From Escherichia coli (GTDB taxonomy: Bacteria; Pseudomonadota; Gammaproteobacteria; Enterobacterales; Enterobacteriaceae): a stretch of DNA of 33,964 nt. The position numbers and the translations under genes are program-made. Where the stretch lies: NCBI RefSeq assembly GCF_003334385.1, contig NZ_QOWN01000048.1; one strand, 5' to 3'. Position 1 is the first letter of the stretch; every line of letters starts with the position of its first letter. The notes under the pieces are model-generated. The model had not been told where the DNA came from. It was given only the letters and a program-made list of their open reading frames with translations, and searched no databases. This document shows positions 27,671 through 28,553 of the stretch, in pieces.

Positions 27671-27693
27671 AAAAAACCCTGCCGGAGCAGGGT
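27671..27693 (-). terminator. Rho-independent terminator separating the hok/125-aa moron from the virion-protein operon
   Basis: On the minus strand, ACCCTGC-TCCG-GCAGGGT hairpin followed by UUUUUUG. Confidence 0.55.
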
Positions 27694-27745
27694 CAGAATG
27701 TGAATTGCAATGTGGGTTTACGCTCGATGATGAATACAGTGGCAG

Positions 27746-28123
27746 TCAGACTGCTATCCTGAACACCATGAAGCCATCCTCATCATCCGGCATTCGCTCA
27801 AAGCCCAGACGTTTTCCCAGCCGGATAAATCCTCGTCTTGCCGTATGAAATTCGGCCCAGCGTCCGCCAGCCAGGCGGGTTAATGTCTTCACCTCCGGCA
27901 GATAACGCTCAACACTCTTACTCCCCGTACACACGCCCAGTAACACCAGAACATAAGGGATACCATCGTCACTGAGCACAGAACGCAGCACCAGAAAACC
28001 ATCCGGCGCTTCAAAGCAAAACGCCTGCTTTTTAAGGCAGGCGTCTTTAACTTCATTCATAAATTCAGGGTTGCGGGAATTTCTCACAACACGCTGCATA
28101 TACCGGAGAATTCTGTCGTCCAT
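27746..28123 (-). CDS. Hypothetical moron-encoded protein (125 aa)
   Basis: ORF with an internal start MDDRILRYMQRVV... preceded by AGGTGA; the ORF-track start at 28147 lacks a ribosome-binding site. It lies between the hok-like gene and a terminator. Confidence 0.4.
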   Translation of the reverse strand: MDDRILRYMQRVVRNSRNPEFMNEVKDACLKKQAFCFEAPDGFLVLRSVLSDDGIPYVLVLLGVCTGSKSVERYLPEVKTLTRLAGGRWAEFHTARRGFIRLGKRLGFERMPDDEDGFMVFRIAV

Positions 28124-28203
28124 TCTCTCACCTGAAACGGGTGCCATATCGGCTGAACCTCAGCAACCAGTTGACGGGGACTTTCGTCCCCGTCGCGGTT
28201 TTC

Positions 28204-28344
28204 CTACTGCTTACACTGTAAGAACGCCGCAAACTCCGCTCCCCACAAATTCAGCCGGAACTCACACAACGAGCCGTGTAACATCCAGATGGTGAAGATT
28301 ACCGTCATACAAATTGTGACGGTGATGAGCGATTTTTGCGACAT
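28204..28344 (-). CDS. Hok/Gef-family type I toxin (46 aa), absent from the supplied ORF track because it is under 60 aa
   Basis: My reverse-complement translation gives MSQKSLITVTICMTVIFTIWMLHGSLCEFRLNLWGAEFAAFLQCKQ: a hydrophobic transmembrane segment followed by SLCEFR and AEFAAF, matching the Hok-family pattern (SLCE[IF]R ... EVAAF). AGGAGG Shine-Dalgarno 8 nt upstream. Confidence 0.6.
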   Translation of the reverse strand: MSQKSLITVTICMTVIFTIWMLHGSLCEFRLNLWGAEFAAFLQCKQ

Positions 28345-28527
28345 AGCGCTTGCCTCCTGAGTGGAGAGGCGCTAACCTTCTACTTGCTTAAGGTATGATG
28401 GTTAGGGCCTCGGGTTAAACAAAATGTTTGACTCGGGGCCTTTCCACATCAGGCCTTCAGGTTCTCCCTCCAGCCATCAGCCGAAAGGCACCCGCGCATA
28501 ATCTACGATTTTTGCCCTGCACGGGCA

Positions 28528-28553
28528 ACAAAAAACCCGCCATCACAGCGGGT
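28528..28553 (-). terminator. Rho-independent terminator downstream of the lom-like gene
   Basis: On the minus strand, ACCCGC-TGTGATG-GCGGGT hairpin followed by UUUUUU, 24 bp after the lom stop. A second hairpin (TTGCCC-TGCAC-GGGCAA) follows immediately. Confidence 0.55.

Follow-up and report, generated by a model that had tools for sequence, protein, structure and literature searches.

A mobile hokW-sokW cassette next to a conserved late-operon gene with a terminator-like hairpin in a 933W/Sp5-type prophage of Escherichia coli

Morons, in the sense of Hendrix and colleagues, are units of promoter, gene and terminator that lie between genes which are adjacent in related phages, with lom and bor of phage lambda as known examples. 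The late operon of 933W-type phages is transcribed by a Q-modified polymerase, which ignores terminators. Such a phage also hosts a described toxin-antitoxin locus, hokW-sokW of the prophage Sp5, which is a functional type I system (Takada et al. 2021, Toxins 13:796, PMC8621323). HokW of Sp5 is toxic and is neutralised by sokW, an RNA with 71 nt of complementarity to the hokW leader that was demonstrated by northern blot and genetics; the uninduced lysogen contains both RNAs, whereas upon addition of mitomycin C sokW is lost and HokW then appears in the inner membrane, and deletion of the locus halves phage release (PMC8621323). Here, we analysed positions 27,671 to 28,553 of a 33,964-nt stretch of E. 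coli DNA (assembly GCF_003334385.1, contig NZ_QOWN01000048.1), in the following called the window, which covers the right end of a short-tailed prophage of the 933W/Sp5 type (Sepvirinae). The interval contains a hokW-sokW cassette and an open reading frame (ORF) for a 125-amino-acid (aa) protein. We consider it, with a probability of roughly 0.75, to be a composite of a hokW-sokW moron, a core ORF, a terminator-like element embedded in this ORF and a terminator behind it, and not one acquired unit. Its features are listed in the order of transcription of the late genes:

28534 to 28554, minus strand: intrinsic terminator of lom, nine pairs followed by T6, -12.2 kcal/mol
28500 to 28528, minus strand: predicted hokW promoter, with -35 box TTGCCC (28528-28523), 17-nt spacer and -10 box TAGATT (28505-28500)
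28139 to 28493, minus strand: body of the hokW mRNA, with tac GGGUGCC (28493-28487), sok-targeted leader, coding sequence, 3' hairpin (28195-28172) and fbi GGCACCC (28145-28139)
28350 to 28449, plus strand: putative sokW antisense region, coordinates approximate and deduced from the sequence
28204 to 28344, minus strand: hokW coding sequence for a 46-aa membrane toxin, with its own AGGAGG Shine-Dalgarno sequence
27746 to 28123, minus strand: 125-aa ORF (phrog_610; 933W L0129; Sp5 ORF75/ECs1237), a conserved late-operon gene with a predicted GNAT fold
28012 to 28044, minus strand: terminator-like element within codons 27-38 (D-A-C-L-K-K-Q-A-F-C-F) of the 125-aa ORF; on the sense strand, stem ACGCCUGC (28044-28037), loop CUUAAAAA, stem GCAGGCGU (28028-28021) and U-tract UUUGCUUUG (28020-28012)
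27675 to 27694 (as a feature 27669 to 27694), minus strand: intrinsic terminator between the 125-aa ORF and p218, eight pairs followed by T6, -15.0 kcal/mol

The initial annotation had placed two minus-strand terminators, the TTGCCC-17-TAGATT element, the Hok ORF and the 125-aa ORF here, and all of them were recovered at the positions given. It had combined them into a single self-contained moron, a description that applies to the hok cassette but not to the 125-aa ORF, which is syntenic in relatives without hok.

In order to establish the genomic context of the ORF, 92 fetched related loci were compared with the window in a synteny survey, and seven more distant members were also read in context. 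Throughout this set of loci, the ORF is followed by homologues of p218 and p150, except in L011, L012, L023, L024 and L064, which show insertions or a truncation; in about 20 loci the gap between ORF and p218 is between -5 and +8 nt. In prophages of Yersinia kristensenii and Dickeya oryzae and in the Aeromonas phage phiARM81mr (42-54% identity), the homologue has a tail-fibre gene and the p218 homologue as its immediate neighbours, with neither hok nor lom present. The gaps on its two sides measure 13 and 9 nt in Dickeya, and in Aeromonas its start overlaps the upstream gene. Six of the seven distant members were informative (L095, L096 and L098-L101; 25-40% identity), and each of them precedes a p218-like gene. 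Where the contig reaches far enough, they follow a tail-fibre gene and lie ahead of the giant LPD protein, often with overlapping start and stop codons. Overall, homologues range from E. coli to the Aeromonas phage and metagenomic contigs (25-33% identity), and the full hidden Markov model search yielded about 210 family clusters at 50% identity. These comparisons indicate that the 125-aa ORF is an ancestral late-operon core gene of 933W-like short-tailed phages and their relatives. The initial annotation had regarded it as acquired cargo; related phages instead conserve it as a component, a result that the annotation itself had named as refuting its view. All 92 related loci and the seven more distant ones have the ORF at this place of the late operon, regardless of hok or lom.

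The maximal ORF comprises 133 aa (28147-27746) and is annotated in this form in RefSeq, in Sp5 (ECs1237) and in 933W (L0129). Its start codon (28147-28145) overlaps the fbi element of hok (28145-28139). Homologues of 117-124 aa support the start at 28123, which had already been used in the initial annotation, and the evidence favours the 125-aa over the annotated 133-aa form. This has consequences for annotation, as at least 80% of the 1,021-bp interval was found in 402 of 5,426 complete E. coli genomes: about 400 genomes thus carry the ORF as a 133-aa hypothetical protein with its start inside the hok RNA.

The hok cassette follows a different distribution. Among the loci of the survey, hok is present in all E. 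coli loci of at least 94% identity and in nine of 11 Salmonella-type loci (66-73%), the exceptions being L060 and L061, and in none of the loci with 55% identity or less. Conversely, the P2-like phages P88, P884B11 and 520873 have the cassette (81-83% identity) but no 125-aa ORF, and the alignment with P88 extends from the -35 box to fbi only. In the Salmonella relatives, hok precedes the ORF by 142-947 nt, lom or other genes lying in between, and the observed orders are hok-lom-ORF, hok-ORF, hok-other gene-ORF or an arrangement without hok. Five E. coli loci (L040-L043 and L046) show an insert of about 1.6 kb (about 2400-4000) separating hokW from the ORF. In L040, the sole insert that was read, it encodes a 398-aa protein which has a signal peptide as well as an autotransporter-type C-terminus and is similar to a YadA/Eib-like adhesin, and past it the ORF starts with GTG (MSEKIL...). 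An E. coli prophage of 89% identity (L011/L012) harbours Fic-domain and Phd/YefM antitoxin genes on the opposite strand (5446-6047), which separate the ORF from p218; ahead of the ORF there is neither hok nor lom, only a degraded hok 3' end (GGTACCT for GGCACCC).

The cargo in the slot upstream of the ORF therefore varies by phage (lom, hok, the 398-aa adhesin-like gene or a 334-aa gene) next to a constant ORF, which makes this junction a hot-spot for moron insertion with the ORF as its fixed downstream border. Sequence comparison further identifies hokW-sokW (28528-28139, minus strand, about 390 bp) as an independently mobile moron, and here the initial annotation was right: the promoter is conserved in position, and hok is missing from most syntenic relatives and found in unrelated P2-like phages. 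Like the lambdoid morons, hok has a predicted promoter of its own, is missing from relatives in which the flanking genes are contiguous and, judging from hokW mRNA in Sp5, is expressed from the repressed prophage. It differs from them in that the unit as first delimited includes a core gene, and in that the terminator of the cassette is apparently supplied by this neighbouring gene. A further difference concerns base composition. While lom (28577-29314, minus strand) has a G+C content of 45.7% and a 208-aa 'membrane-associated' gene (29394-30020, minus strand) one of 41.6%, which fits compositionally foreign morons, the hok cassette has the same G+C content as the core genes (52.9% versus 50-55%), ruling out its recognition as foreign on this basis.

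The 3.5-kb region is rich in terminator-like sites, with nine compared to 3.4 ± 2.1 in shuffled sequences. The initial annotation had taken the two that bracket the interval as its borders, but the comparison of loci shows that they are not a matched pair introduced by the insertion. The upstream one is the terminator of lom and lies outside the cassette, as homology to P88 begins only downstream of it, at the -35 box. The downstream one is conserved throughout the E. coli loci as well as in Salmonella L058-L062. Since this includes L060 and L061, which have no hok, it was not brought in together with hok; it is missing where the ORF and p218 are no more than 8 nt apart. Hence, one terminator is that of lom and the other is that of the core operon, and they are not parts of one acquired unit.

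In addition, we identified a new element within the ORF that had gone unnoticed in the initial annotation. It is a hairpin with an 8-bp stem (six G-C pairs), an 8-nt loop and the tail UUUUGCUUU, with a predicted stability of -15 to -19.7 kcal/mol, located about 95 nt into the ORF and about 125 nt past fbi; the automated terminator scan of the window lists it in part. Its nucleotide string is nearly invariant down to 42% protein identity. Codon usage at conserved residues was therefore analysed in 23 sequences that are less than 90% identical to one another. At codons 28-37, one and the same codon accounts for 74-100% of cases, with a mean major-codon fraction of 0.95 compared to 0.51 elsewhere in the gene (Mann-Whitney p = 2e-6): GCC in 21/21, TGC in 20/21, AAA in 14/14, AAG in 17/17, CAG in 18/18 and TTT in 21/21. 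Outside the hairpin, by contrast, the invariant Arg96 is encoded by all six codons. The same bias is visible for the Phe codons, which are TTT in 21/21 and 21/22 sequences within the hairpin, whereas elsewhere they are TTT in 70-88% or mostly TTC.

The structure is also recognisable in distant homologues. L099 shows a compensatory C-G to U-A change (AUGCCUGC...GCGGGCAU), and in L100 and L094 the stem is longer, the loop measures 4 nt and the U-tract is better; L094 has UUUUUUGUUUUU here. L101 carries an unrelated GC stem followed by UUUUUAUU, and L095 and L096 are without the element. In an alignment of 21 sequences, 83.8% of the cells are paired, whereas sliding the partner columns gives 19-45%; as the stem shows so little variation, only two pairs display true covariation. 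The automated scan also found the element in the Aeromonas phage (L005). These features suggest that it acts as an intrinsic terminator at the border of the hot-spot. It shares the GC-rich hairpin and the U-tract on the transcribed strand with the intrinsic terminators that Q- or N-modified polymerases read through, and, like those of lambdoid operons, it lies inside an operon that is transcribed by antiterminated polymerase in 933W-type phages. In contrast to them, it is located inside a coding sequence and is kept by synonymous constraint down to about 30% protein identity.

Several points weigh against this assignment. An 8-nt loop is the upper limit for typical intrinsic terminators, the U-tract (UUUUGCUUU) is interrupted, and the scan misses the element in Dickeya (L004), where A-U and G-U pairs can prolong the stem into the U-tract. 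The encoded motif A-C-x-K-K-Q-A-F-C-F is itself highly conserved, and part of the nucleotide conservation is thus protein-driven. Q does not lie in the window, and antiterminated late transcription is carried over from what is known of 933W. Furthermore, the in-frame deletion of Sp5 ORF75, which also removed the element, does not appear among the mutants for which impaired plaque formation or lysogenisation was reported (Mondal et al. 2016, PMC5155283), so that any insulating role would be redundant there. Three other roles were considered for sequences in this region and discarded. AAAAAG in the loop does not qualify as a -1 frameshift site, as the slippery run lies inside the loop instead of upstream and the X-XXY-YYZ context is missing; stem size, loop size and the position in the late operon rule out a boxB-like nut site; and the Pas small RNAs described near Sok hits (Zhu et al. 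2026, preprint) do not correspond to the terminator in the 3' untranslated region of the ORF, since PasA maps near the rusA, Q and lysis genes.

The hok part of the interval is already covered by the published hokW-sokW locus and brings nothing new in itself. The hokW promoter matches 8/12 consensus positions, which is below the listing level of the automated promoter scan, and sites of this quality occur about 1.6 times per kb and strand in the window, so the match is not significant by itself. We credit it because of its position and its conserved hexamers and spacing: the -10 box ends 6 nt ahead of the predicted 5' end of the mRNA (GGGTGCC, G28493), and hexamers and spacing are retained in the cassettes of P88, 933W and, in degenerate form, Salmonella, while the spacer sequence diverges. 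In the minimum-free-energy fold of the RNA from 28493 to 28139, the 5' end pairs with the 3' end (-158.5 kcal/mol, z = -6.6), and the tac-fbi helix is present in 12/12 diverse cassettes, with compensatory changes in 20/57 pairs of the RNAalifold consensus. The peptide, named 'Hok/Gef family protein' in RefSeq, matches Pfam HOK_GEF (E = 4.7e-8, residues 8-44) and phrog_251 (E = 2.8e-24), and reaches 38 bits against NCBIfam HokA, for which the curated cut-off is 89.

On the opposite strand, a candidate sokW promoter consists of TTGCCT (28350-28355), 17 nt and TAACCT (28373-28378), with both hexamers kept in P88, and a candidate terminal hairpin at about 28406-28439 is followed by TTT. The leader scores 42.1 bits (E = 7e-8) against the Rfam sok model RF01794, below the gathering score of 59. 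The locus resembles the hok/sok systems of plasmid R1 and E. coli chromosomes (Hok/Gef PF01848; RF01794) in its peptide, its long leader with tac-fbi fold-back and its putative antisense sok region. It departs from them in the sub-threshold Rfam match and in the strong Shine-Dalgarno sequence of hok itself. No mok frame overlapping the start of hok was found, the only upstream ORF having 15 codons (28449-28402), and hok is preceded by an in-frame stop; this absence counts against a classical assignment and sets hokW apart from classical hok loci. With Sp5, the cassette shares the location after lom in a 933W-like prophage and a sequence identity of 92% (VT2-Sakai), as well as a predicted promoter of its own, with hokW mRNA in the uninduced lysogen known from Sp5. 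The peptide is limited to 46 aa by an in-frame TAG at 28374-28372, compared to the 51 aa given for HokW by Takada et al. (PMC8621323). Finally, neither this locus nor any E. coli locus in which hok directly abuts the ORF has a terminator between fbi and the 125-aa ORF, whereas the P88 and Salmonella cassettes carry their own terminator 20-35 nt past fbi.

Taken together, we propose that the hokW-sokW cassette landed between the terminator of lom and the next core gene. In the lysogen, hok mRNA would be made from its own promoter, closed by tac-fbi pairing and repressed by antisense sok; upon induction, sok would disappear and HokW would be made and damage the inner membrane, helping lysis and phage release. 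These steps are assigned to the present copy because they have been shown for the 92%-identical Sp5 locus. The 125-aa GNAT-fold protein would be expressed with the late genes. Unmodified polymerase coming from moron promoters (hok, lom or adhesins) would be halted at the embedded hairpin, the first terminator after hok in this phage, before it reaches the virion and ejection genes, while Q-modified late polymerase would read through. The terminator behind the ORF (27694-27675) may form a second barrier of the same kind, older than the insertion of hok. In Salmonella L007, lom ends 28 nt ahead of the ORF without a terminator of its own. If the proposal holds, a hairpin at the downstream edge of the hot-spot would allow short-tailed Stx-type phages to accept promoter-bearing cargo without lysogenic leakage into the genes for the giant ejected protein.

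Three other explanations need to be weighed against this proposal. The view that terminator, promoter, hok, ORF and second terminator were acquired together as one moron, with the ORF as a conversion or exclusion factor expressed in the lysogen, draws on the two good terminators that bracket the interval with one promoter, and on the fact that in all E. coli loci where hok and ORF abut, they are 84-113 nt apart with no terminator between them. However, it is refuted by the synteny survey and is hardly tenable any more: all distant relatives and some of the close ones have the ORF but no hok, P88-like phages have hok but no ORF, L040-L043, L046 and Salmonella loci carry other genes between the two, and the downstream terminator also occurs in L060 and L061, which lack hok. 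That the homologues are unrelated is excluded by E-values down to 1e-57 and by common neighbours. The role in lysogenic conversion or superinfection exclusion raised in the initial annotation becomes unlikely, as the ORF belongs to the late operon and carries a terminator-like element close to its 5' end, and this role is further weakened by the Sp5 in-frame deletion without a reported phenotype (PMC5155283). The same deletion speaks against a related scenario of secondary capture, in which the ORF is ancestral but hok of Stx phages lost its terminator, giving rise to a bicistronic hok-ORF transcript that ends at 27675 and to a new lysogen function of the GNAT-fold protein. The lack of a terminator between fbi and the ORF start, in contrast to P88 and Salmonella, and the strong terminator behind the ORF would agree with such a transcript; the hairpin and U-tract about 95 nt into the ORF would truncate it, and the start of the ORF is not obviously coupled to hok. 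We therefore judge secondary capture improbable, albeit less so than joint acquisition. A larger but still minor share of doubt concerns the hairpin itself, which might serve as an operator for an RNA-binding regulator, as an RNase processing or mRNA-stabilising hairpin for the tail-fibre message, or as a protein-binding palindrome. The loop CNUAAAAA is conserved as well and is long for a terminator, and the U-tract is formed by conserved Phe-Cys/Leu-Phe codons and could be incidental. Yet distant homologues alter both stem and loop and still form a GC-rich hairpin, and the U-tract directly behind it is even better (L094, L101), and the conserved T-run is found on the sense strand only, with the Phe codons there biased to TTT. 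A terminator thus remains the preferred reading of the embedded hairpin.

For the 125-aa protein, the initial annotation had reported no recognisable motif. This is correct at the level of sequence, as searches against Pfam, NCBIfam, PADLOC and the PDB returned no match, but not at the level of the fold. The predicted structure has the GNAT alpha/beta fold, which would make the protein a minimal GNAT-fold protein. Small members of this superfamily include the anti-CRISPR AcrVA5 (PDB 6iuf) and the N-terminal acetyltransferases Naa20, Ard1 and RimI. In comparison with the superfamily, the protein lacks the first beta strand of the canonical fold, no Pfam acetyltransferase profile matches, and the gene has a fixed genomic position inside the tail/ejection block. 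The loop between beta4 and alpha3 reads CTGSKS here, with the family consensus S-x-x-G-[ND]-[AG] at 35-67% conservation. The best conserved block of the family, F-x-T-x-R-K-G-F-x-R, is located at the beta5-alpha4 junction, which we take to be the site where GNAT proteins contact the phosphates of coenzyme A (CoA). Some results weigh against the assignment: it depends on a predicted structure, profiles of 34 and 66 family members gave no link to GNAT and nothing relevant in the PDB or Pfam, the canonical Q/RxxGxG/A loop is only weakly recognisable, and the usual position of the catalytic Tyr is not conserved in the family. Based on the predicted fold, the protein is most likely an accessory acyl- or acetyltransferase, or a non-catalytic GNAT protein, which would act on a phage or host protein.

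An alternative is that it serves the tail or ejection apparatus as a non-enzymatic structural or assembly part, in which a GNAT-like fold has simply been retained. The constant location of the gene among tail-fibre and virion-protein genes, often with translational overlap, is in line with this view, as are the weak conservation of the acetyl-CoA loop motif, the catalytic Tyr position that is not conserved and the missing GNAT profile match. On the other hand, the Sp5 deletion mutant still gives plaques and lysogens, unlike deletions of true tail genes (PMC5155283), and the F-x-T-x-R-K-G-F-x-R block would fall on the CoA-phosphate contacts if our placement of these is right. A purely structural part is therefore conceivable but rather unlikely, and an accessory GNAT-fold protein remains the favoured interpretation. 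A literature search on ECs1237 returned nothing. For virions of 933W-like phages, the text of a 2025 study gives mass spectrometry for only three structural proteins (Microbiology Spectrum, PMC12502783).

The constant partner of the gene is p218, likely an ejected virion protein, whose deletion in Sp5 (ORF76) lowers lysogenisation (Mondal et al. 2016, PMC5155283). Its N-terminus is rich in glycine, M-G-[GK]-[GKS]-G-G, in nearly all homologues of more than 40% identity, some of which start with GTG, and more distant homologues (among L002-L101) have an N-terminal extension ahead of the KGGG segment. In eukaryotic non-enveloped viruses, membrane-penetration proteins are myristoylated at the N-terminus. 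By analogy, one could speculate that the GNAT-fold protein and p218 are an enzyme-substrate pair, in which the glycine-rich N-terminus of p218 (MG[GK]GGG) is acylated or acetylated and the embedded terminator restricts both genes to antiterminated late transcription; we regard this as a long shot, which, if true, would provide a counterpart to viral myristoylation. Irrespective of this idea, the fixed pairing offers a handle on the least understood part of 933W/Sp5 virions, the non-essential proteins encoded between the tail fibre and the 2,790-aa protein. While the interval as first described is mostly ordinary, this pairing and the embedded hairpin are its noteworthy parts. In Yersinia-type loci with a gap of about 250 nt between ORF and p218, we also observed a 48-codon ORF with a hydrophobic C-terminal half (L002, 6469-6615), which could be a small insert.

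The prophage is integrated in ynfG, with its late genes on the minus strand. Around the interval, these genes are arranged as follows, from upstream to downstream:

31581 to 30313, minus strand: tail-tip fibre, the most upstream gene in this order
between the tail-tip fibre and lom, minus strand: a 92-aa gene, then the 208-aa gene
29314 to 28577, minus strand: lom coding sequence, directly upstream of the interval
27652 to 26996, minus strand: p218 (phrog_611), downstream of the interval
after p218, minus strand: p150, an 83-aa glycine-rich protein, p420 and a 2,792-aa LPD/MuF protein

The 1,021-bp interval shows 100% identity with prophages of several E. coli strains that are not Shiga toxin-producing (non-STEC), for instance UPEC-245U, and 92-98% identity to about 190 Stx phage records. 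The prophage interrupts ynfG, and a truncated 4Fe-4S protein fragment adjoins ynfF (window positions about 12030-12120). The right arm further contains a PAPS-reductase-like and an IbrB-like gene (13931-15786, plus strand) and a Panacea-domain gene (15875-16399, minus strand). The Rfam family sRNA-Xcc1 (RF02221) was detected above threshold twice, at 12439-12527 and 12979-13064 (plus strand), with 69 and 73 bits. Each match lies about 40 nt upstream of an antirepressor gene of the antA/antB type, one of which is intact (13105-13734) and the other a pseudogene fragment (about 12571-12837); the matches resemble a leader or small RNA tied to the ant genes at the end of the prophage.

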